Part shown: in pieces, positions 530 to 34,884 of the stretch
How positions within the stretch are numbered: the first letter of the stretch is position 1
How the letters are laid out: each line of letters begins with the position of its first letter
NCBI RefSeq assembly: GCF_055900595.2
Contig: NZ_CM148325.1
DNA length: 64,000 nucleotides
Direction: 5' to 3' (one strand)
Notes under the pieces: generated by a model
What the model was told of the DNA's origin: nothing
Databases searched by the model: none
Seen by the model: only the letters and a program-made list of their open reading frames with translations
Translations under genes and position numbers: made by a program

Positions 530-616
530 TCATACTTACCTTTTTGTACGTACTTACTAAAAGTAAGTTTAGGTGGTAGCGTATTTAAACACAAGACAAA
601 CCGATGGAGGCTTCCC

Positions 617-1477
617 ATGATCGCAATTACCGGCGCAACCGGCCAACTTGGTCACCATGTTATTAACTCCTTACTGAAAACCGTTCCTGCCAGCCAAATA
701 GTGGCTATCGCACGTAACCCGGCAAAAGCGCAGGCATTGAGCGCGCAAGGCATTACTGTACGTCAGGCTGAATACGGCGATGAGGCCGCACTGACATCTG
801 CGCTTCAGGGAGTGGAAAAACTGCTGCTGATCTCTTCCAGCGAAGTGGGGCAACGTGCCCCGCAGCATCGAAATGTTATTAATGCCGCTAAGGCGGCGGG
901 CGTGAAATTTATCGCTTATACCAGCCTGCTACATGCTGATACCTCCCCGCTCGGCCTCGCCGATGAGCACATCGAGACGGAGAAAATGCTGGCTGTTTCT
1001 GGCATCGCTTACACCTTGCTGCGCAACGGCTGGTACACCGAAAACTATCTCGCCAGCGCCCCGGCAGCACTGGAGCACGGCGTATTTATCGGTGCCGCGG
1101 GCGATGGCAAAATTGCCTCAGCTACGCGAGCTGATTATGCGGTAGCTGCGGCGCGCGTAATTAGCGAAGCAGGTCACGAAGGCAAGGTTTATGAACTGGC
1201 AGGTGATAGCGCCTGGACACTGACACAGTTAGCGGCGGAACTCACCAAACAGAGCGGCAAACAGGTTACCTATCAAAACCTGAGCGAAGCTGATTTCGCC
1301 GCGGCGCTGAAAAGCGTCGGTCTGCCTGACGGGCTGGCGGATATGCTGGCGGATTCTGACGTTGGCGCATCGAAAGGCGGCCTGTTTGATGACAGCAAAA
1401 CGCTTAGCAAATTGATTGGCCGCCCAACGACAACATTAGCCGAGAGCGTAAGCCATCTTTTTAATGTTAATAACTAG
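617..1477 (+). CDS. qorB: NAD(P)H:quinone oxidoreductase QorB (NmrA-like, YtfG)
   Basis: ATG at 617 preceded by GGAGG (606-610); N-terminal MIAITGATGQLG Rossmann motif; 286 aa; the longer track ORF from 392 overlaps ytfH and is rejected. Confidence 0.9.
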   Translation: MIAITGATGQLGHHVINSLLKTVPASQIVAIARNPAKAQALSAQGITVRQAEYGDEAALTSALQGVEKLLLISSSEVGQRAPQHRNVINAAKAAGVKFIAYTSLLHADTSPLGLADEHIETEKMLAVSGIAYTLLRNGWYTENYLASAPAALEHGVFIGAAGDGKIASATRADYAVAAARVISEAGHEGKVYELAGDSAWTLTQLAAELTKQSGKQVTYQNLSEADFAAALKSVGLPDGLADMLADSDVGASKGGLFDDSKTLSKLIGRPTTTLAESVSHLFNVNN

Positions 1478-1576
1478 TTAATTAAAGTGGCATCCTCCCG
1501 TATCCTCTCTGATAATGACGGGATGCGGGGAACGACTACGGTTGTTCCCTGAATATTTCTTCTGACAGATCAATGG

Positions 1577-2551
1577 ATGCCAGTAATGATTAGCGGCGTG
1601 CTGTACGCCCTGTTAGCAGGGTTGATGTGGGGGCTTATATTTGTCGGGCCGTTGATCGTGCCGGAATACCCGGCGATGTTGCAGTCGATGGGGCGTTATC
1701 TGGCGTTAGGGTTAATTGCGCTGCCCATTGCCTGGCTGGGACGCGTGCGTCTGCGTCAGTTGGCGCGTCGCGACTGGCTTACCGCCTTGATGCTCACTAT
1801 GATGGGCAACCTTATCTATTACTTCTGTCTTGCCAGTGCCATTCAACGTACTGGCGCGCCTGTTTCCACGATGATTATTGGCACCCTGCCGGTGGTGATT
1901 CCCGTTTTTGCCAATCTGCTTTATAGCCAGCGTGACGGTAAACTCGCGTGGGGGAAACTCGCCCCGGCGCTGGTTTGTATTGGCATCGGCCTTGCATGTG
2001 TAAATATTGCTGAGTTAGACCACGGACTCCCCGATTTTGACTGGGCACGTTATACCTCTGGCATCGTGTTGGCGTTAGTTTCCGTGGTCTGCTGGGCGTG
2101 GTATGCCTTGCGCAACGCCCGTTGGCTGCGGGAAAACCCAGACAAACATCCGATGATGTGGGCAACGGCGCAGGCGCTGGTCACGCTGCCGGTTTCTCTC
2201 ATCGGCTATCTCGTCGCCTGTTACTGGCTGAATACGCAAACGCCGGGCTTCTCCCTACCTTTTGGCCCCCGTCCGCTGGTGTTTATTAGTCTGATGATTG
2301 CGATAGCCGTGCTTTGCTCATGGGTTGGCGCACTCTGCTGGAACGTCGCCAGCCAGCGATTACCGACGGTTATCCTCGGACCGTTGATTGTTTTCGAAAC
2401 GCTGGCAGGTTTGCTGTACACCTTTTTACTCCGCCAGCAAATGCCGCCGCTAATGACGCTGAGCGGTATCGCGCTGTTAGTGATTGGCGTGGTCATTGCG
2501 GTCAGAGCCAAACCGGAAAAGCCTTTAACTGAACCTGTCTCAGAAAGTTGA
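1577..2551 (+). CDS. ytfF: Inner membrane transporter YtfF (EamA/DMT family)
   Basis: 324-aa highly hydrophobic ORF with multiple TM segments; synteny with ytfE and qorB; exact start (1577 or 1586) uncertain. Confidence 0.85.
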   Translation: MPVMISGVLYALLAGLMWGLIFVGPLIVPEYPAMLQSMGRYLALGLIALPIAWLGRVRLRQLARRDWLTALMLTMMGNLIYYFCLASAIQRTGAPVSTMIIGTLPVVIPVFANLLYSQRDGKLAWGKLAPALVCIGIGLACVNIAELDHGLPDFDWARYTSGIVLALVSVVCWAWYALRNARWLRENPDKHPMMWATAQALVTLPVSLIGYLVACYWLNTQTPGFSLPFGPRPLVFISLMIAIAVLCSWVGALCWNVASQRLPTVILGPLIVFETLAGLLYTFLLRQQMPPLMTLSGIALLVIGVVIAVRAKPEKPLTEPVSES

Positions 2552-2608
2552 CACGCTGGCAGTGAGTTAAATAAGCCTCTGCTACGTAAGGGTTATAGCA
2601 TTTGCCTT

Positions 2609-2632
2609 AAAGATGCATTTAAAATACATCTT
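2609..2632. promoter_or_regulatory. NsrR operator (11-1-11 inverted repeat AAGATGCATTT-A-AAATACATCTT) in the ytfE promoter
   Basis: Near-perfect inverted repeat read directly from sequence, 27 nt upstream of the ytfE ATG; matches the known NsrR binding motif; ytfE is an established NsrR target. Confidence 0.8.
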
Positions 2633-2658
2633 ATATTATTAAGAATGAGGTATCAGCT

Positions 2659-3321
2659 ATGGCTTATCGCGACCAACCTTTAGGTGAACTGGCGCTCTCT
2701 ATTCCTCGCGCTTCGGCTCTGTTTCGTAAATATGATATGGATTACTGCTGCGGCGGTAAGCAAACGCTGGCGCGTGCGGCGGCACGTAAAGAACTGGATG
2801 TTGACGTCATTGAAGCCGAACTGGCAAAGCTTGCTGAACAACCGATTGAGAAAGACTGGCGTAGCGCCCCACTGGCGGAAATCATCGACCATATCATCGT
2901 GCGCTACCACGATCGTCACCGCGAGCAGTTGCCGGAGCTGATCCTGCAAGCTACCAAAGTCGAGCGCGTTCACGCCGACAAACCGAGCGTGCCAAAAGGG
3001 CTGACAAAATACCTGACCATGCTGCATGAAGAGCTTTCCAGCCACATGATGAAAGAAGAGCAGATCCTCTTCCCGATGATCAAACAAGGCATGGGTAGCC
3101 AGGCGATGGGGCCAATTAGCGTAATGGAAAGCGAGCACGATGAAGCGGGCGAACTGCTGGAAGTGATTAAACACACCACCAATAACGTCACACCGCCGCC
3201 GGAAGCCTGCACCACCTGGAAAGCGATGTATAACGGTATTAATGAATTGATTGATGACCTGATGGATCACATCAGCCTGGAAAACAATGTACTGTTCCCA
3301 CGCGCGCTGGCGGGTGAGTGA
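2659..3321 (+). CDS. ytfE: Iron-sulfur cluster repair di-iron protein YtfE (RIC)
   Basis: 220-aa ORF; RBS GAGG upstream; translation recognised as E. coli YtfE. Confidence 0.92.
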
Positions 3322-7194: not shown

Positions 7195-7316
7195 TCCGCT
7201 TCCCCACGTCTTCTTCGTGATGACTATCTTAACCCGATTTGTTAGAAGCTCCACTAAAATGGCTAAAAACTCGCAATTTCATCGGGTTATCAAATGCTCT
7301 GTGATCATTATCGCAT

Positions 7317-9844: not shown

Positions 9845-11386
9845 ATGCGTAAGATAACAACCGCCGAGACACTGGCGGCGCAAATTCAGGACGGCGCAAC
9901 CATTGCCATTAGCGGTAATGGCGGCGGCATGGTGGAAGCGGACCATATTCTGGCTGCTATTGAAGCGCGTTTCCTGCAAACCGGACACCCGCGCGATCTG
10001 ACATTAATCCACTCACTGGGCATTGGCGATCGCGACTGCAAAGGCACTAACCGCTTCGCTCATGCAGAGATGCTCAAACGCATCATTGCCGGACATTTTA
10101 CCTGGTCGCCCAAGATGCAGGATCTGGTGAAAAACAATGCTATTGAAGCCTACTGCTTCCCTGGTGGCGTAATTCAGGCACTGCTGCGGGAGATCGGTGC
10201 CGGACGTCCAGGGCTTTTTACCCACGTTGGGCTGGGATCGTTTGTTGATCCGCGCAACGGCGGCGGTAAGTCGAACGCTAGCAGCACTGAGGATCTGGTA
10301 GAACTGATTGAAATCGACGGTGAAACCAAACTTCGTTATCGCCCCTTCAAAGTGGACTACGCGATTTTGCGTGGCACTTATGCCGATCCGCGTGGCAACG
10401 TCAGCCTCGAAGAAGAGGCGATTGATATGGATAGCTATTCCATGGCGCTGGCAGCACACAACAGCGGCGGCAAAGTGTTCGTACAGGTGCGCGATGTGCT
10501 GGAAGCTGGTGCCATTGAACCACGCCGGGTCAAATTACCGGGCATTCTGGTTGATGGCATCGTTGAACACCGCGAACAACCGCAAACCTATCTTGGCGGT
10601 TACGACCTGACCATCAGCGGTCAGCATCGCCGTCTAAGTTCTAACGACGCAATTGAACTGGTTAGTCATCCGGTGCGCCGCCTGATTGCCCGTCGGGCAG
10701 CACGCGAACTGGTGGCTGGCGCTTCAACCAACTTTGGCTTTGGCATTCCCGGCGGCATTCCTGGGGTTGCACTGCGCGAAGGCGTGCCTTATCAAAGTTT
10801 ATGGCTGAGCGTAGAACAGGGTGTACATAACGGCATGATGCTGGATGATGCTCTGTTCGGCTGCGCCCGCAACGCCGATGCCATTATTCCATCACTCGAT
10901 CAATTCGAATTCTACAGTGGCGGAGGGATCGATATCACCTTCCTCGGCATGGGAGAGATGGATCAGTACGGTAACGTCAACGTCTCCCATCTCAATGGCA
11001 ATCTCATTGGCCCCGGCGGATTTCTCGAAATTGCGCAAAACGCCCGTAAAGTGGTGTTCTGCGGCACGTTCGACGCCAAAGGTAGCACGATTGATGTAAC
11101 ACCAGATGGCTTGCATATCGCCCAGTCAGGTCAAATCCCTAAACTGGTTACCCAGGTGGAAAAAATCACTTTTAGCGCCGCCTACGCACAGCAAAGCGGT
11201 CAGGAAGTGTTGTATATCACTGAACGTGCAGTATTCCAGTTAACAGCAGAAGGCGTTGAATTAATTGAAATCGCACCAGGTGTGGAGATTGAGCGCGACA
11301 TTCTGCCGCATATGGCCTTCCGTCCAATTATCAATCAGCCACGCCTGATGGAAAGTAGCCTGTTTACGCCGATGGAGGATGCATGA
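9845..11386 (+). CDS. Family-I CoA-transferase (fused alpha/beta, YdiF / propionate-CoA-transferase-like)
   Basis: 513 aa; N-terminus TAETLAAQIQDGATIAISGNGGGM and size match acyl-CoA:acetate/3-ketoacid CoA-transferases; RBS AAGGA. Confidence 0.75.
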   Translation: MRKITTAETLAAQIQDGATIAISGNGGGMVEADHILAAIEARFLQTGHPRDLTLIHSLGIGDRDCKGTNRFAHAEMLKRIIAGHFTWSPKMQDLVKNNAIEAYCFPGGVIQALLREIGAGRPGLFTHVGLGSFVDPRNGGGKSNASSTEDLVELIEIDGETKLRYRPFKVDYAILRGTYADPRGNVSLEEEAIDMDSYSMALAAHNSGGKVFVQVRDVLEAGAIEPRRVKLPGILVDGIVEHREQPQTYLGGYDLTISGQHRRLSSNDAIELVSHPVRRLIARRAARELVAGASTNFGFGIPGGIPGVALREGVPYQSLWLSVEQGVHNGMMLDDALFGCARNADAIIPSLDQFEFYSGGGIDITFLGMGEMDQYGNVNVSHLNGNLIGPGGFLEIAQNARKVVFCGTFDAKGSTIDVTPDGLHIAQSGQIPKLVTQVEKITFSAAYAQQSGQEVLYITERAVFQLTAEGVELIEIAPGVEIERDILPHMAFRPIINQPRLMESSLFTPMEDA

Positions 11387-13455
11387 GTCAGCTTGATGAC
11401 ACCCTCCTTGATGCGCTGACGCACGTCACTTTCCCGAAGGGTTTTGCACAGGCAGAACCCGCATGGGTTGTCACGGTAGACGGTGTTGATTACCCACTCT
11501 GGCAAACAGATGCCCTGGTAGTCGGCAGTGGTGCAGCCGGGCTGCGTGCAGCTGTGGAACTTAAGCGCCGCCAGCAAAATGTGCTGATCGCCACCGCCGG
11601 GTTATATATGGGGACATCGGCATGTTCTGGTTCCGATAAACAGACGCTGTTTACCGCCGCTACCGCGGGCAACGGCGATAACTTCGCCAAACTGGCAGAG
11701 GCACTGGCGAGCGGCGGCGCAATGGATCACGATACCGCTTATGTTGAAGCGGTTGGTTCCCTGCACACTCTTGGCGGGTTGCAATATCTTGGTCTGGAAT
11801 TACCGGAAGATCGCTATGGCGCAATTCTTCGTTATCAAACCGACCATGACGAAGCCGGGCGAGCAACCTCGTGTGGGCCGCGGACCTCAAGGTTAATGGT
11901 GAAAGTACTGCTGGAAGAAGTACAGCGTCTCGCCATTCCAGTGTTGACCAGTGCAACAGTAATTAAACTGCTGCATCAGCGTGACGAAAACGGTGAAGAC
12001 CGCGTGGCGGGGGCAATCCTCGCGACCGGTCATCGTGCCCATAACCCATGGGGGCTGGCAATTGTGACTGCGCCCAATGTGGTACTGGCAACAGGAGGGC
12101 CTGGCGAGCTTTATCGTGACAGTGTGTACCCACACAAATGTTTCGGCTCGCTGGGGCTGGCGCTGGAAGAAGGTCTGACGTTAACGAATCTGACCGAAAG
12201 CCAGTTTGGTATAGGCACGCCGCGCAGCACCTTTCCGTGGAATTTATCCGGGACTTATGTACAGGTGATCCCATACATCTATTCGGTGGATGCCGGGGGC
12301 AACGAGTATAACTTCCTCGCAGATTACTATCGCACCACCCAGGAGCTGGCTTCAAACATCTTCCGTAAAGGCTATCAGTGGCCGTTTCACGCCACACGAG
12401 TGATGGATTTTGGCTCCAGCTTGTTAGATATGGCAGTAGCGCAAGAGCAGCAATCAGGACGTCAGGTATTTATGGATTTCAATCGCAATCCTGAACCTGT
12501 GCCGGGTGACCTGCCGTTCTCATTAGATCGACTGGACGACGACGTTCGCGCGTATCTGGAAAATAACGACGCTCTGGCACCATCGCCCATCGAACGACTG
12601 CAACGAATGAATCCGCTGTCTATCTCGCTGTATAAGATGCACGGTTACGATCTCACCACGCAGCCATTGCAGTTTGCCATGAATAATCAGCATATGAATG
12701 GCGGCATTGAAGTGGATATCTGGGGGCAAACCTCCCTGTCCGGCTGTTTCGCCGTGGGGGAAGTTGCTGGCACACACGGCGTCACTCGCCCTGGTGGTGC
12801 GGCATTGAATGCCGGGCAGGTTTTTGCTGTTCGTCTGGCACGTTTTATTGGTTGCACGCAAAAACGTAATATTGATGGAGATATAGCACAGCTGGTAGCT
12901 CCGGCACTGGCTTCTATAAGAGAGATCATTACTCAGGCGCACGATAACGGGACCGGGATGCCGTTGTCGGTTGTGAGGGAAAAAATTCAGGCACGAATGT
13001 CTGACCATGCGGGATTTATTTGTCATGCCGATAAAGTCCGACGCGCCACTCGTGATGCCCTGCTATTGAACGAATTTGTGCAACGGCATGGATTGGCAAT
13101 CAAACATGTGGGTGAAGTTGCCGAGCTGTTTATGTGGCGGCATATGGCGCTGACTTCTGCCGCGGTATTAACACAATTAACGCATTATATTGATGCTGGT
13201 GGTGGTAGCCGTGGGGCGCGTATGGTTATTGATCCACAAGGCAAATGCCTACCACAAACTCGTCGCGGCGCAAAAGAAGAATGGCGTTTTCGCTCTGAAC
13301 TCGCTGAAGACAAAAATCACAAATTAACAATTCAATATTCGCAAGGTTCTTTTATTACCGAAGTAAAGTCTTTACGTATGCAACCGTGTATTAACGGTAT
13401 TTACTTTGAAAAAAACTGGCCAGACTTTTTAAAGGGAGACATTTACACACAGTAA
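11383..13455 (+). CDS. FAD-dependent oxidoreductase of the fumarate reductase/succinate dehydrogenase flavoprotein superfamily (soluble, stand-alone)
   Basis: 690 aa; ALVVGSGAAGLRAAVEL dinucleotide-binding motif after a ~45-aa N-terminal extension; C-terminal GEVAGTHGVTRPGGAALNAGQVFA resembles the FrdA/SdhA HGANRLGxNSL segment; start overlaps the CoA-transferase stop (ATGA). Confidence 0.8.
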   Translation: MSQLDDTLLDALTHVTFPKGFAQAEPAWVVTVDGVDYPLWQTDALVVGSGAAGLRAAVELKRRQQNVLIATAGLYMGTSACSGSDKQTLFTAATAGNGDNFAKLAEALASGGAMDHDTAYVEAVGSLHTLGGLQYLGLELPEDRYGAILRYQTDHDEAGRATSCGPRTSRLMVKVLLEEVQRLAIPVLTSATVIKLLHQRDENGEDRVAGAILATGHRAHNPWGLAIVTAPNVVLATGGPGELYRDSVYPHKCFGSLGLALEEGLTLTNLTESQFGIGTPRSTFPWNLSGTYVQVIPYIYSVDAGGNEYNFLADYYRTTQELASNIFRKGYQWPFHATRVMDFGSSLLDMAVAQEQQSGRQVFMDFNRNPEPVPGDLPFSLDRLDDDVRAYLENNDALAPSPIERLQRMNPLSISLYKMHGYDLTTQPLQFAMNNQHMNGGIEVDIWGQTSLSGCFAVGEVAGTHGVTRPGGAALNAGQVFAVRLARFIGCTQKRNIDGDIAQLVAPALASIREIITQAHDNGTGMPLSVVREKIQARMSDHAGFICHADKVRRATRDALLLNEFVQRHGLAIKHVGEVAELFMWRHMALTSAAVLTQLTHYIDAGGGSRGARMVIDPQGKCLPQTRRGAKEEWRFRSELAEDKNHKLTIQYSQGSFITEVKSLRMQPCINGIYFEKNWPDFLKGDIYTQ

Positions 13456-13547
13456 TTTTCAATATTTACTCTGTACCTGATTTTTATTGCCTATTACATG
13501 GAAATACCAACAACCAGGGTTTATTAATATAATTAAAAGGTTTAAAA

Positions 13548-14825
13548 ATGAATAAAATAAAGAATTATCGATGGCATATGATTGCCCTCGTATGCTTTAT
13601 CACTGTAATCAATTATCTGGACAGAACGGCGTTAGGTATTGCGGCTCCAACGATTATGGAGACAACCGGAATAACCAAAGAACAATATTCATGGATTGTC
13701 AGTGCATTCCAGTTGGCCTATACATTGGGGCAACCGGTAATGGGCTTCTTTATTGATACCGTGGGTCTGAAGTTAAGTTTTGCGATATGTGCCGCAATCT
13801 GGGGCCTGGCGACAATGGGGCATGCCTTGACAGGAACATGGTCAGGTCTGGCATTTATGCGCGCCCTGATGGGTTTCAGCGAAGCATCGGCAATTCCTGC
13901 GGGTGTAAAAACCGCATCAACATGGTTCCCGGCAAAAGAGCGTGGCGTGGCGACAGGTGTTTTCAATATGGGCACCTCACTCGGCGCGATGCTTGCTCCA
14001 CCGTTGATTGCCTGGTGCATTATGTTTCATAGCTGGCAATTTGCGTTTATTGTCTCAGGTAGCCTTGCTTTACTCGCGGCTTTATTTTGGTTCTTTTGTT
14101 ATAAAGATCCAAAAGATGCTAAACGCCTTTCTGATGAAGAGCGCCACTATATTGAGTCTGGGCAAGAACAGCATCTTAAAACAGATAAGAAAGAAAAAAC
14201 GTCAATCAAGCATATCCTCAGCCAACGTAATTTCTGGGGGATTGGCATCGCGCGTTTTCTCGCTGACCCGGCATGGGGAACCATTAACTTCTGGGTACCG
14301 ATTTTCTTCGTCGAAACGCTGCATTTTAGCCTGAAAGAAATTGCCATGTTCGTCTGGCTGCCTTTCCTGCTGGGCGATCTCGGCTGTTTAGCCAGTGGTT
14401 TTGTCGCGAAGTTCTTCCACGATCGCGGCGTGAGTTTAATTAACTCACGAAGAATTACCTTCACTATTGCAGCCGTCATTATGATGACGATTGGTCTGGT
14501 GAGTATTGTCGAAAATCCCTACATCGCCGTATTACTGATTAGCATTGGCGCATTCTCGCATCAATGTCTTTCTACTGTTGCAGCAACTCTGGGCGGTGAC
14601 CTATTCAAAAAAGACGAAGTAGCTACCGCTGTGGGTATGGCAGGAGCCTGTGCATGGAGCGGTCAGTTGATTTTCAACCTGTTTATCGGGGCATTCGTTC
14701 ACATTATTGGCTTCGCGCCGTTCTTTATTGCCCTGGCTTTCTTTGACATTATTGGTGCTATTGCGTTGTGGACGCTTATCAAAGTTAAAGATGAAGAACC
14801 ACAAGTACAGTTAGCTACCCACTAA
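13548..14825 (+). CDS. MFS transporter, anion:cation symporter (ACS) subfamily-like (ExuT/DgoT/GudP-type)
   Basis: 425 aa, about 12 TM segments; N-terminal RWHMIALVCFITVINYLDRTALGIAAP is characteristic of ACS-family organic-anion permeases. Confidence 0.8.
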   Translation: MNKIKNYRWHMIALVCFITVINYLDRTALGIAAPTIMETTGITKEQYSWIVSAFQLAYTLGQPVMGFFIDTVGLKLSFAICAAIWGLATMGHALTGTWSGLAFMRALMGFSEASAIPAGVKTASTWFPAKERGVATGVFNMGTSLGAMLAPPLIAWCIMFHSWQFAFIVSGSLALLAALFWFFCYKDPKDAKRLSDEERHYIESGQEQHLKTDKKEKTSIKHILSQRNFWGIGIARFLADPAWGTINFWVPIFFVETLHFSLKEIAMFVWLPFLLGDLGCLASGFVAKFFHDRGVSLINSRRITFTIAAVIMMTIGLVSIVENPYIAVLLISIGAFSHQCLSTVAATLGGDLFKKDEVATAVGMAGACAWSGQLIFNLFIGAFVHIIGFAPFFIALAFFDIIGAIALWTLIKVKDEEPQVQLATH

Positions 14826-14836
14826 TTATTTTAAAT

Positions 14837-14868
14837 AAAAACGCTATAATTGAGGTTATGGCGTTTTT
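14837..14868 (+). terminator. Intrinsic terminator after the MFS transporter gene
   Basis: Hairpin aaaacgctataa/ttatggcgtttt (one mismatch) with short loop, followed by a T-run, 12 nt past the stop codon. Confidence 0.55.
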
Positions 14869-15094
14869 AAAGAAGCTTGAGTTATCGAACCTAGCTTACC
14901 AACGCGTTGTCAGTCATCTCCCCCCTCCCTGGTGCATCGTTATATCCGTGATGAGCGATTTTTGATATTAATATCTTTCACCATCCGCTATTTTCACCAC
15001 TTCAGAAAACAAACTTATTTTTATTAATATCAATTCTTTTTCTTTGAACATTCAACTGCGATATTTGTAAAAATATTAAACAGGCAACAATAAA

Positions 15095-15889
15095 ATGACA
15101 TTACCAACAACTATTTATTCATTCCCCGCATATTTACCTCGTTTTTCGTCCACCGACAAACCAGCAAAACTAAAATTTCATCAATACGCACGCGCTACAT
15201 TACTGTCAAATCGTGGAAGAGATCATAATTGCGATGGCAGACGTACTGTTGAGATCCACAAACTAGATCTCTCAGACTGGCAAGCATTCAATAAGCTAGC
15301 GACGAGGTGTAATACTTACGATGGAATAACAATGAATGGTGATAATTCTTTTGGATGGAACCATGAAGCTACATTAGATAATATTCACGCCCAGAAATAC
15401 AATAAAGCTTACGCGGGTGCGCGGTTAACCGCAGAACTGAAATATTTATTGCAAGATGTCGAATCCTTCGAACCCAACAGTAAATACACAATACACGAAG
15501 TGGTTTTGGGACCTGGTTATGGTACTCCAGACTATACCGGCCAAACGATAGGATACGTTGTAACCCTTCCTGCCCAAATGCCTAATTGCTGGTCATCTGA
15601 ACTACCAACAATCGATCTTTATATCGACCAACTTCGCACTGTTACAGGCGTTTCTAATGCCCTCGGATTCATCATTGCTGCATTGCTAAACGCGTATTCT
15701 GATTTACCCCATGATTTGAAAATTGGTCTACGTTCCTTATCAAATTCAGCCGCAATCTACTCGGGTTTAGGTTTCGAGCGAGTGCCGCAGGACCGAGACA
15801 TAAGGAGTGATCGTATGCATCTAACGCCAGCAAACCATCCTGACTTATGGACACAAGAGAATGGTGAATGGATCTACTTGCGAAATTAA
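15095..15889 (+). CDS. yjfZ: Uncharacterised protein YjfZ
   Basis: 264-aa ORF, AT-rich, preceded by an AT-rich 270-bp intergenic region; size and position next to rplI match K-12 yjfZ. Confidence 0.75.
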   Translation: MTLPTTIYSFPAYLPRFSSTDKPAKLKFHQYARATLLSNRGRDHNCDGRRTVEIHKLDLSDWQAFNKLATRCNTYDGITMNGDNSFGWNHEATLDNIHAQKYNKAYAGARLTAELKYLLQDVESFEPNSKYTIHEVVLGPGYGTPDYTGQTIGYVVTLPAQMPNCWSSELPTIDLYIDQLRTVTGVSNALGFIIAALLNAYSDLPHDLKIGLRSLSNSAAIYSGLGFERVPQDRDIRSDRMHLTPANHPDLWTQENGEWIYLRN

Positions 15890-15911
15890 TGCCTGACGAA
15901 AAATAGAAAGC

Positions 15912-15938
15912 AAAACGCCGACCAATGGTCGGCGTTTT
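15912..15938. terminator. Bidirectional intrinsic terminator between convergent yjfZ and rplI (aaaacgccgacc-aatg-gtcggcgtttt)
   Basis: Perfect 12-bp stem whose A/T runs give a U-tract in both orientations. Confidence 0.75.
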
Positions 15939-18723: not shown

Positions 18724-19410
18724 TTACTTCTGCCCGTAATAGGCGTTAGGACCGTGCTTACGCATGAAGTGTTTATTCATGAGATAGCTGTCGATGTGAT
18801 TCAGTTGTGGGTTAATGCCGCGGGCAATCCACGCCATTTTCGCCACTTCTTCCATCACCACCGCGTTATGCACCGCATCGTGAGCATCTTTCCCCCAGGC
18901 GAATGGCCCGTGCTGATACACCACAATTCCCGGCGTATGCAGCGGCTCGGCGTCACCCAGCGTTTCGATAATCACTTTGCCAGTGTTTAGCTCGTATTCC
19001 CCCTGCACTTCTTCTTCGCTTAACCCGCGCGTACAGGGGATATCGCCAAAGAAGTAGTCAGCATGCGTGGTGCCTAATGCCGGGATCGCCAGCCCCGCTT
19101 GCGCCCATGCGGTGGCATGCGTGGAATGGGTATGGACAATGCCGCCAAGCGACGGATAACGACGGTAGAGTTCAAGATGCGTCGCAGTGTCGGAAGACGG
19201 ACGATACTCCCCTTCCACCACCTTGCCGCTCATATCAACCACCACCATATCGTTCGCTTTCATGCTTTCGTAGGCGACGCCGCTGGGCTTGATCACCACC
19301 AGCCCGCGTTCGCGGTCAATGGCGCTGACGTTGCCCCAGGTAAAGGTCACCAGCCCGTAATGCGGCAGATCCATATTGGCTTCAAACACCTGCTGTTTTA
19401 GCTTTTGCAT
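18724..19410 (-). CDS. ulaF: L-ribulose-5-phosphate 4-epimerase UlaF
   Basis: 228-aa class II aldolase/epimerase ORF at the end of the ula operon. Confidence 0.93.
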
Positions 19411-21732: not shown

Positions 21733-23484
<1,752 letters not shown>

Positions 23485-24549
23485 ATGAGTAAAGTGAAAA
23501 GTATCACCCGTGAATCCTGGATCCTGAGCACTTTCCCGGAGTGGGGTAGCTGGTTGAATGAAGAAATTGAACAAGAACAGGTAGCTCCTGGCACATTCGC
23601 GATGTGGTGGCTAGGCTGCACCGGGATCTGGCTGAAATCTGAAGGAGGCACCAACGTTTGCGTCGATTTCTGGTGTGGTACTGGCAAACAAAGTCACGGT
23701 AACCCACTAATGAAACAGGGTCACCAGATGCAGCGCATGGCTGGCGTGAAAAAACTGCAACCGAACCTGCGTACCACCCCATTTGTTCTTGATCCGTTTG
23801 CGATTCGCCAGATCGACGCGGTACTGGCAACTCACGATCACAACGATCATATCGACGTCAACGTCGCTGCTGCCGTGATGCAGAACTGCGCTGATGACGT
23901 GCCATTTATCGGGCCGAAAACCTGCGTGGATTTGTGGATTGGCTGGGGTGTGCCGAAAGAACGTTGCATCGTGGTCAAACCGGGCGATGTCGTTAAAGTG
24001 AAAGACATTGAAATTCATGCCCTTGACGCGTTTGACCGTACTGCACTGATCACTTTGCCTGCCGATCAAAAAGCGGCTGGCGTACTGCCAGACGGCATGG
24101 ACGATCGCGCGGTAAACTACCTGTTCAAAACGCCGGGCGGTACCCTGTATCACAGTGGCGATTCCCACTACTCTAACTACTATGCGAAGCACGGTAACGA
24201 GCATCAGATCGACGTGGCATTAGGTTCATACGGTGAAAACCCTCGTGGTATCACCGACAAAATGACCAGTGCTGATATCTTGCGTATGGCAGAAGCGCTG
24301 AATACAAAAGTGGTTATCCCGTTCCACCATGATATCTGGTCAAACTTCCAGGCCGATCCGCAAGAGATCCGCGTACTGTGGGAGATGAAAAAAGATCGCC
24401 TGAAGTATGGCTTCAAGCCGTTTATCTGGCAGGTCGGTGGCAAATTTACCTGGCCGCTGGATAAAGACAACTTCGAGTACCACTATCCACGTGGTTTTGA
24501 CGATTGCTTCACCATTGAACCGGATCTGCCGTTCAAGTCGTTCCTGTAA
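23485..24549 (+). CDS. ulaG: L-ascorbate-6-phosphate lactonase UlaG (metallo-beta-lactamase fold)
   Basis: 354 aa starting [10 protein letters not shown]; HDHNDH metal-binding motif. Confidence 0.93.
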
Positions 24550-32908: not shown

Positions 32909-33606
32909 TACTCGCCCTGTTGGCGTTGCAGTCTTGCTAATACATCCTGGGCGCTACTTTTGTTGCTACCGCCAATTCCGGCTTCCGCCAGTTTTTCATC
33001 AAGATCGCGACCATCTGCCACTTTTTCCAGCTGTGCGGCAGCATCCAGGCGAGCTTGACGTTCGGCCTGACGCGTTTGCAGACGCTTTAAGGATTCTGCC
33101 GCTGTCGAAACGCTGGAAGATGCGCCAACAGTAGAGGTCGTTACGGCCTGTTGTGCACGCTGCATGGCTTCAGTAGCTTTAACGACTTCCATTTGTTGCT
33201 CAAATTGAGCGATACGCTGTGCTGTCGCTGTAACCGCTTTTTCCACACCATCGCGAGAGACTTCCAGATTCGACAACACTTGCTCTTCAGCGGTAATGAC
33301 ATTCTCAAGACGGGCGATTTCTTCAGCAACTTCGTTAATCAACGACGGATTAACATTCTTGCTTAACGCTTCCAGCGCGCGAGCTTCCAGACTGGCTTTA
33401 CGCTCACGCAAATCTTTCAGTTTATCGTTGCTCAATTTCACTCTTGCCAGTAGATCGACACGTGATTTACCGGCCTTATCCAGTTCTGCTTTGGCATCGC
33501 GTATATGCTGTTCAAGCATTCTAACGCCCTGTGCTTCTTCAATGGATTCTTCCGCTTGCGAGATCACCGATTTACCCAGCGTAAATAAAGTTTTTAAAAT
33601 TCCCAT
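32908..33606 (-). CDS. yjfJ: PspA/IM30-family protein YjfJ
   Basis: 232-aa coiled-coil-rich ORF. Confidence 0.9.
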   Translation of the reverse strand: MGILKTLFTLGKSVISQAEESIEEAQGVRMLEQHIRDAKAELDKAGKSRVDLLARVKLSNDKLKDLRERKASLEARALEALSKNVNPSLINEVAEEIARLENVITAEEQVLSNLEVSRDGVEKAVTATAQRIAQFEQQMEVVKATEAMQRAQQAVTTSTVGASSSVSTAAESLKRLQTRQAERQARLDAAAQLEKVADGRDLDEKLAEAGIGGSNKSSAQDVLARLQRQQGE

Positions 33607-33624
33607 AAATACCTGTCCTTGTAA

Positions 33625-34026
33625 TTAATGTGAATATTCTTCTGTAATTTCAGCAAGATCCAAAGCGTTATCTACCAGCGTGGTTATTTCCAGCAGGATA
33701 TCTTCAAGAGAAGATTTAAGCGATAACGCCCCGAAAACAATGTAATACTCTTCCTGTTGCACGCTGGAGATCCCTACCGATGACAACGGCATCATCTTCT
33801 GATTTCTTAATAAGAAGGTATGAAATTCATCTGGATTGCTGATACTACTTACCGGGCAAATAAAGGTTTCGATGATCATTTGGCGGGAAGTAAAAAGAAT
33901 ATTGATTTGCAAATCGCCATAATCATTCATTTTAATAATTAATGCGTTTTCATTATTTGTTACATCAATATTTTGTTCAGGTACAGTTTGCAGCGCCGTC
34001 GCCAGCGCCAACGGATTCCATGTCAT
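33625..34026 (-). CDS. yjfI: DUF2170 protein YjfI
   Basis: 133-aa ORF, first gene of the yjfIJ unit. Confidence 0.85.
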   Translation of the reverse strand: MTWNPLALATALQTVPEQNIDVTNNENALIIKMNDYGDLQINILFTSRQMIIETFICPVSSISNPDEFHTFLLRNQKMMPLSSVGISSVQQEEYYIVFGALSLKSSLEDILLEITTLVDNALDLAEITEEYSH

Positions 34027-34105
34027 ATATTATTCCATATAAATTAAGTTTAAATATTAATAAAATGAATATTTGTAGTACGTAATTATCTTACCAGCTA
34101 TAGAC

Positions 34106-34132
34106 AAAAAAAAACCATCCAAATCTGGATGG
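34106..34132 (-). terminator. Intrinsic terminator after rlmB (ccatcc-agattt-ggatgg followed by a U-run on the minus-strand transcript)
   Basis: 6-bp stem with the + strand A9 run giving T9 downstream on the minus strand. Confidence 0.6.
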
Positions 34133-34152
34133 CTTTTCATAATTCCGAGAAA

Positions 34153-34884
34153 TTAGCTACGCTGGCGTACCGCTTCAAATAAGCAAATGCCTGTCGCCAC
34201 AGAAACGTTCAGCGAAGAAACACTTCCTGCCATTGGGATGCTGATCAACTCATCGCAATGTTCACGGGTCAGGCGACGCATGCCTTCACCTTCTGCGCCC
34301 ATCACCAGTGCCAGCCGTCCGGTCATTTTGCTCTGATAGAGCGTATGATCCGCCTCACCTGCCGTACCGACGATCCAGATATTCTCTTCCTGCAACATAC
34401 GCATGGTGCGCGCAAGGTTAGTCACCCGAATCAGCGGAACGCTTTCTGCCGCGCCGCAGGCTACTTTTTTCGCCGTGGCGTTGAGCTGTGCGGAGCGATC
34501 TTTCGGCACAATCACCGCATGAACACCTGCGGCGTCCGCGCTACGCATACATGCACCCAGGTTATGCGGATCGGTTACACCGTCGAGGATCAGCAGGAAC
34601 GGCTGATCGAGCGAAGCGAGCAGATCCGGCAGATCATTTTCCTGATACTGACGTCCAGGCTTCACACGGGCGATAATGCCCTGATGCACGGCACCGTCGC
34701 TTTTCTCGTCGAGATATTGGCGGTTTGCCAGCTGGATAACCACGCCCTGGGACTCAAGGGCGTGAATCAGCGGCAACAGACGTTTATCTTCACGGCCTTT
34801 TAAAATAAAGACTTCCTGAAAACGTTCAGGGGCGCGCTCCAGCAGGGCCTGCACTGCGTGGATGCCGTAAATCATTTCGCTCAT
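34153..34884 (-). CDS. rlmB: 23S rRNA (guanosine2251-2'-O)-methyltransferase RlmB
   Basis: 243-aa SpoU-family ORF. Confidence 0.93.

Follow-up and report, generated by a model that had tools for sequence, protein, structure and literature searches.

The segment at 14826-15889 of the window, that is, of the whole 64,000-nt stretch of DNA that we analysed, carries the known E. coli gene yjfZ, and we lean towards an account in which this gene is an AT-rich variable cassette encoding a predicted GNAT-fold protein of the YjfZ/YjiC family, with an H-NS-bound 5' region and probably low expression. As envisaged here, yjfZ and its promoter region would make up a 1,037-bp AT-rich cassette bounded on one side by the terminator of a catabolic operon, just past its MFS transporter gene, and on the other by that of rplI. 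The YjfZ protein would comprise a predicted GNAT acyl-CoA N-acyltransferase core preceded by a family-specific N-terminal region, and the 5' region would, by virtue of its composition, bind H-NS, with the result that yjfZ is probably held at low expression in the manner of xenogeneic silencing. As a named K-12 gene, yjfZ is already on record, as are its Pfam family and its H-NS site, and the phenomenon is a known one; the polymorphism of the slot and the fold hypothesis are modest additions, and the stretch matters little beyond annotation.

The window region is E. coli chromosome, and 14826-15889 matches (99.9%) strain RMDEC465, whose annotation gives the ORF as 'yjfZ: DUF2686 family protein'. 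The gene order runs from ytfB through a TetR regulator gene and a five-gene catabolic operon with an MFS transporter gene (13548-14825) to yjfZ (15095-15889, plus strand), after which come the convergent rplI-rpsR-priB-rpsF on the minus strand. In LF82, a strain with a hipA-type insert, homology to the window ends at 14869 and resumes at 15907, and in genomes lacking yjfZ similarity to the window likewise begins at 15907, a junction common to all three variants of the slot. Given this break in the alignments, the variable unit corresponds to 14870-15906, exactly between two terminators (Table 1). The hairpin on the left, likely the terminator of the catabolic operon, forms the left limit of the cassette, while the perfect hairpin on the right serves rplI as terminator and, being symmetrical, yjfZ as well, thus forming the right limit; an Rfam scan yielded sub-threshold matches only, all of them on this second hairpin. 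K-12-type genomes retain 14927-15906.

Table 1. Coordinates of features in and around the yjfZ cassette (positions in the window)
Feature	Position	Strand	Details
Hairpin with A-run and T-run	14836..14869	+	3' of the MFS gene; 14-nt inverted-repeat arms, 93% complementary
yjfZ cassette	14870..15906	+	1037 bp; G+C 0.407; limits by alignment with LF82 and strain 504239
AT-rich spacer	14826..15094	+	Upstream of yjfZ; G+C 0.327; K-12 counterpart listed with RpoD holoenzyme and H-NS sites
Near-invariant upstream block	14935..15035	+	Six-allele alignment; palindrome GATATTAATATC at 14963-14974, partial second copy at 15022-15033
Candidate sigma-70 promoter	15044..15071	+	TTGAAC-16-TGTAAA; K-12 GTGAAC-16-TATAAA; by eye
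yjfZ CDS	15095..15889	+	264 aa; ATG start; Pfam DUF2686
Predicted GNAT-fold core	15245..15823	+	Residues 51-243
Conserved loop TVTGVSNALG	15638..15667	+	Residues 182-191, between predicted beta4 and alpha3
Perfect hairpin, 13-bp arms	15912..15938	.	A-run/T-run flanks; between convergent yjfZ and rplI

Alignment of six yjfZ alleles revealed that a block of about 100 nt in the upstream spacer is almost invariant, with the 60 nt nearest to the start codon being variable. The block contains the 12-bp palindrome GATATTAATATC, with a partial second copy 56 nt downstream of the first; a palindrome of this length arises in 10.7% of shuffles and is not significant alone. The block may be a regulatory site serving as the operator for some regulator. 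The candidate sigma-70 promoter between this block and the start codon is graded as weak because it was read by eye and because a consensus promoter scan, at its threshold, found none in the spacer. The ribosome-binding site of yjfZ also looked weak by eye.

With respect to strain distribution, the earlier note had placed the gene at the edge of a variable locus, and our data suggest that this understated the matter, since yjfZ is itself a variable unit alternating with other inserts. Among 5426 complete E. coli genomes, 2538 (47%) carry yjfZ, with megablast and sensitive blastn in agreement, and rplI is present in 5425 of the 5426; coverage reaches at least 80% of the yjfZ CDS in 2524 of the 2538 matching genomes, and a few copies are truncated. 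In 1047 of the 5426 genomes (19%), the slot after the same MFS gene is filled by a hipA/HTH toxin-antitoxin module, and in 1446 genomes by full-length matches (27%), TRAP transporter genes adjoin the rplI terminator, replacing both the MFS gene and the slot. The site beside the rplI terminator is thus a multi-allelic slot, occupied by yjfZ, TRAP or hipA/HTH genes in this order of frequency. These occupants share with yjfZ the right junction at the rplI terminator and are all AT-rich (G+C 0.407 for the yjfZ cassette, 0.424 for hipA/HTH and 0.438 for TRAP), yet they are unrelated to it in sequence and function. Like yjfZ, the hipA/HTH module comes after the same MFS gene, whereas the TRAP genes take over the transporter place of the MFS gene within the operon. 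In LF82, the module corresponds to 9890-11652 of locus L002, comprising a HipA-family toxin gene and an HTH gene, and was also found in the 'clone D i14' records.

The arrangement of the window, with an intact MFS gene followed by yjfZ, is found in only 289 complete genomes; subtraction from the 2538 with yjfZ gives about 2250 in which the MFS-yjfZ junction is missing. The points at which the matches start suggest a K-12-like deletion of the operon in these roughly 2250 genomes, a figure based on such start points and not on a direct count. Apart from locus L008, the yjfZ genomes inspected, namely K-12, one O157:H7 strain and two others, had the operon deleted, with only the TetR remnant ytfA left. 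In three strains (the O157:H7 strain and two others), an IS200/IS605-type element, comprising an IS609-like tnpA and an InsQ/TnpB gene, was noted inside the TetR remnant upstream of yjfZ (L005 920-2560, L006 898-2545 and L007 740-2369).

The earlier note had also described yjfZ and its upstream region as AT-rich relative to the flanks, and this description held on a proper calculation: the G+C content of 14826-15889 is truly low, at 0.399 (39.9%) vs. 0.516 (51.6%) for the whole 64,000-nt window (z -3.0), with 0.27% of equal-length segments within the window being as poor in G+C. The yjfZ CDS has a G+C of 0.424, with 0.494, 0.423 and 0.355 at codon positions 1, 2 and 3, respectively; compared with the 36 annotated genes of locus L001 from the near-identical strain RMDEC465, its GC3 is the lowest (z -2.3; neighbour mean 0.54) and its overall G+C the second lowest (z -2.1). 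Flanking genes lie above this value (rplI 0.498, the MFS gene 0.464 and the FAD gene 0.521). The 269-bp upstream spacer, with a G+C of 0.327, is AT-rich for a promoter spacer yet within the normal spread, and is unexceptional alone: for the 14 spacers that are 80 bp or longer the mean is 0.411 (sd 0.064), and the ulaA|ulaG spacer, at 0.331, is as AT-rich as that of yjfZ. The true compositional outlier is the yjfZ coding sequence. On a 450-bp scale, four tracts in the window reach 62% A+T or more, that at 14641-15470 among them. The remaining three lie at 13121-13820, 22971-23650 and 33501-34290, of which 22971-23650 is the ulaA|ulaG spacer, likewise marked HNS in a genomic SELEX list (PMC3946193).

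Analysis of coding status indicated that yjfZ is a constrained protein-coding gene under purifying selection, albeit less constrained than its neighbours. This conclusion stems from the finding that six of six alleles are intact at 264 codons, with a mean dS of 0.063, a mean dN of 0.016 and a dN/dS of 0.26 (vs. 0.05 for the ribosomal operon and 0.03 for ulaF), and from the near-invariance of the middle of the protein, from about residue 80 to 225, the substitutions being concentrated in residues 1-80 and 226-250. These data bear on the notion that the yjfZ ORF is non-functional or in decay, left over without a protein function. Such a notion could draw on the lack of a known function for yjfZ, the relaxed constraint vs. 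neighbours, the weak-looking ribosome-binding site and the truncated copies in a few genomes; however, with the CDS largely covered in nearly all genomes that match it, the alleles at full length and the core near-invariant, together with 49 positions that are invariant between YjfZ and its paralogue YjiC and a coherent predicted fold, we regard a remnant ORF as very unlikely. As a separate observation on a neighbouring gene, ulaF (18724-19410) displayed a dS of 0.13-0.34 (mean 0.24) among six E. coli strains, the adjacent ribosomal-protein operon having a dS of 0.013, which suggests recombination of ulaF with divergent alleles or paralogues.

As to family assignment, the protein matched Pfam PF10887, DUF2686 (YjfZ/YjiC), with 503.4 bits against a gathering cut-off of 25 (E 1.7e-151), with residues 5-264 aligning to model positions 17-285 of 285, and is hence a full member that does not differ from the rest of the family. 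Searches of Pfam and NCBIfam gave DUF2686 only, leaving yjfZ outside any confident housekeeping family, and NCBIfam, PADLOC and PHROG had no YjfZ match. The YjfZ of the window is 95-97% identical to those of K-12 and other E. coli, and 38-41% identical to YjiC. When 1.84 billion cluster representatives were scanned exhaustively with HMMER, just 22 proteins matched, comprising YjfZ fragments, fragments of a YjiC-like paralogue with 35-52% identity and one repetitive protein of 3635 aa; the latter (P0024), with 12 matching stretches, was judged to be spurious, since this surface-type protein is repetitive and the match is to a short segment repeated within it. A profile search identified the paralogue as YjiC, naming as sources E. 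coli, Shigella and E. albertii only. One transcriptome table tags yjiC with 'biofilm' (PMC11228462). Among 100,044 species representatives, the family was detected only in E. albertii and in one contig binned as Collinsella. The product encoded on this 1283-bp contig (L009, JAIJJM010000835.1, from a bin labelled Collinsella sp.) shares 96% identity with E. coli YjfZ, and the contig is probably an E. coli contig mis-binned into a Collinsella MAG as a contaminant. Judging from these searches, the YjfZ/YjiC family appears to be confined to Escherichia and Shigella. YjiC of E. albertii and that of E. coli share only 61% identity, implying that the family is either fast-evolving or of complex history.

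Whether yjfZ came from outside is where two readings diverge. Besides its AT-rich composition, yjfZ is accessory in E. coli, sits in a discrete cassette, in place of which other strains carry different AT-rich inserts, belongs to a family seen only in Escherichia and Shigella and has an H-NS site in its K-12 counterpart, all of which is in line with the xenogeneic reading of the earlier note; the part that did not fare as well concerns the source and the motif, as neither a donor nor a vehicle was found and the high-affinity H-NS motif TCGATAAATT is not enriched. The cassette is without integrase or transposase and without flanking direct repeats, and there is no tRNA between positions 10000 and 20000 of the window. 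We have considered and rejected an integrative genomic island, a tRNA-linked island and an IS-borne cassette, there being no integrase or transposase, no tRNA and no direct repeats at the yjfZ cassette. Similarly, a phage search gave no yjfZ match, and apparent plasmid copies were dismissed since the matching records, 0.37-4.9 Mb in size and typed as non-mobilizable, were taken as chromosomes or mis-assigned replicons. With no donor, phage, plasmid, integrase, tRNA or direct repeat to point to, we infer the horizontal acquisition and foreign origin of yjfZ from composition and patchiness.

Conversely, yjfZ could be a native and old Escherichia gene, a diverged duplicate of yjiC that is kept AT-rich by weak selection and low expression and has become patchy by deletion or replacement at a recombination-prone site. 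This would fit with a family found only in Escherichia, with a paralogue in both E. coli and E. albertii, with the failure to find a donor, a mobile element or a phage or plasmid copy, and with the constraint on yjfZ being relaxed in comparison to its neighbours; in addition, the allelic dS is high enough to imply a long residence of yjfZ in E. coli. At odds with a native origin, on the other hand, are a GC3 that is far from host composition, an identity with YjiC that is too low for a recent duplication within the species, and the sharp limits of the cassette along with its alternation with unrelated inserts. On these grounds, we consider a native gene to be unlikely, though it deserves some weight, and continue to favour the AT-rich variable cassette with an H-NS-bound 5' region.

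Evidence for H-NS association comes from genomic SELEX in K-12 W3110, where the entry 'yjfZ < HNS > ytfA' in Table 1 of that study denotes RNA polymerase holoenzyme and H-NS sites in the spacer (PMC3946193). The K-12 spacer is common to the window over 14927-15094, at about 89% identity, with the upstream flank differing beyond 14927. H-NS binding is thus documented in vitro for the K-12 allele of yjfZ. The paralogue has a comparable record, its yjiC/iraD spacer being listed among the H-NS-bound 'promoter islands' and predicted to be foreign (PMC3661553). The TCGATAAATT motif, allowing up to 2 mismatches, occurs once in the stretch, below the average of the window. In the papers searched, work on hns mutants included, no results on in vivo H-NS occupancy or on expression were found for yjfZ. 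From the K-12 binding record and the composition, we infer that H-NS would silence yjfZ in vivo. In its AT-rich 5' region, its patchy occurrence among strains and its listed H-NS and RNA polymerase sites, yjfZ resembles the H-NS-bound accessory genes and 'promoter islands' of K-12; unlike the large H-NS-bound islands, it is a single gene without mobility functions.

The earlier note had found no recognisable motif in the protein, and at the sequence level this stands, with DUF2686 as the sole assignment; the predicted structures, however, are suggestive of a GNAT acyltransferase fold. For YjfZ, AlphaFold modelling on a shallow alignment of 17 sequences gave a mean pLDDT of 55 and a pTM of 0.57 (the mean pLDDT for YjiC is 49); block means for residues 110-264 are mostly 60-87, and those of the N-terminal 107 residues mostly <50. 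The elements of the YjfZ model comprise a strand at 51-57, helices at 62-73 and 99-125 and strands at 132-139, 150-158 and 175-182, followed by a helix at 189-200, a strand at 210-215, a helix at 216-223 and a strand at 238-243, an order corresponding to that of GNAT proteins (beta1-alpha1-alpha2-beta2-beta3-beta4-alpha3-beta5-alpha4-beta6). Structural neighbours of YjfZ and YjiC are found among AHL synthases, siderophore N-acyltransferases and N-acyl amino acid synthases; within the GNAT superfamily, the closest counterparts are larger members such as BH2621 (2qml), siderophore acyltransferases (DfoC, SidF) and AHL synthases (LasI, EsaI). Foldseek against viral models likewise returned acetyltransferases. 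In contrast to this similarity of models, YjfZ has no sequence or profile similarity to the GNAT superfamily: Pfam at E <=10 gave DUF2686 only, and no GNAT family, for all 17 family members, and a profile search of the PDB gave chance matches only (E >0.1), with no GNAT chain. An hhalign comparison of the family with a RimI alignment gave a probability of 0.3, which tells us nothing either way given how shallow the two alignments are (Neff 1.9 and 1.4). YjfZ further differs from GNATs in two poorly modelled parts, some 50 residues at the N-terminus and an insert of roughly 25; its C-terminal hairpin is conserved.

Within the predicted core, the conserved loop TVTGVSNALG, in which the YjfZ and YjiC sequences all agree at T182, V183, G185, V186, N188 and G191, would occupy, as placed by eye on the model, the position of the CoA pyrophosphate-binding motif A of GNATs in a degenerate form; motif A reads Q/R-x-x-G-x-G/A, whereas the loop reads T-V-T-G-V-S, with the first and last motif positions substituted. 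Some GNATs carry a catalytic tyrosine on the helix that corresponds to the one bearing Y222 in YjfZ. According to the model, Y222 would therefore lie on the equivalent of this catalytic helix; in YjiC the residue is a histidine. Taking the models together, we consider it reasonably likely that YjfZ adopts a GNAT fold, which for a family without an assigned function amounts to a fold-level hypothesis. If the fold prediction holds, YjfZ would most likely acylate some amine, with acyl-CoA or a related thioester as the donor. That YjfZ is an active acyltransferase we propose tentatively, with the model leaving us slightly on the doubtful side. As a broader and rather improbable conjecture, YjfZ and YjiC may be a fast-evolving, Escherichia-only branch of the large GNAT-fold acyltransferases that is silenced by H-NS, passes between strains in a single-gene cassette alternating with a HipA toxin-antitoxin module, and makes or modifies a lineage-specific small molecule or protein.

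Since in other strains a hipA/HTH module fills the slot, the predicted fold could also be read as that of a solitary GNAT-type toxin or defence-like module, comparable to TacT and AtaT, which acetylate tRNA. For a toxin of this type, one would look for an antitoxin partner in the same operon, and this was rejected as there is no adjacent small gene on either side of yjfZ: the upstream spacer is without any ORF >35 aa, the largest (35 aa) overlapping the terminator, and a terminator is found directly 3' of yjfZ. Moreover, at 264 aa YjfZ is about 50% longer than the toxin chains (154-180 residues), and the protein had no counterpart in PADLOC or PHROG. We thus deem a solitary toxin extremely improbable and retain the reading of YjfZ as a predicted GNAT-fold family protein encoded by an AT-rich, H-NS-bound cassette.

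The distribution of yjfZ is of some consequence to diagnostics. A 2024 paper proposes YjfZ as a 'conserved signature protein' of E. coli and Shigella for water-quality qPCR (PMC11057252). The 'YjfZ' primers and probe in that paper translate to TGRMLY, ELAEGLR and TSALDEIYGG, peptides found in YjiC-type proteins and not in the YjfZ of the window. Caution is warranted in that 53% of complete E. coli genomes lack yjfZ and that the published 'YjfZ' primers encode YjiC-type peptides.

Some observations were made on neighbouring loci. Between ytfE and cycA, at about 558-3241 (from the L001 offset), there are two 'hypothetical protein' genes of 497 and 385 aa with a G+C of 0.45-0.47, which are absent from K-12 and gave no PADLOC match. 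The segment 6547-14825 is a TetR-regulated operon that is deleted in K-12, with a ytfA remnant left; its genes encode a 3-ketoacyl-ACP reductase, a sugar-phosphate isomerase/epimerase, an enoyl-CoA hydratase, a CoA transferase, a 690-aa FAD protein and an MFS transporter, and strains differ in whether the transporter module is the MFS gene or TRAP genes. The sequence TGTGATCATTATCGCA at 7300-7315, in the spacer from which the TetR regulator gene and the first catabolic gene diverge, matches, with one mismatch, the CRP ChIP-seq site 'ETEC-specific/ytfA' of ETEC H10407 (PMC4287617).
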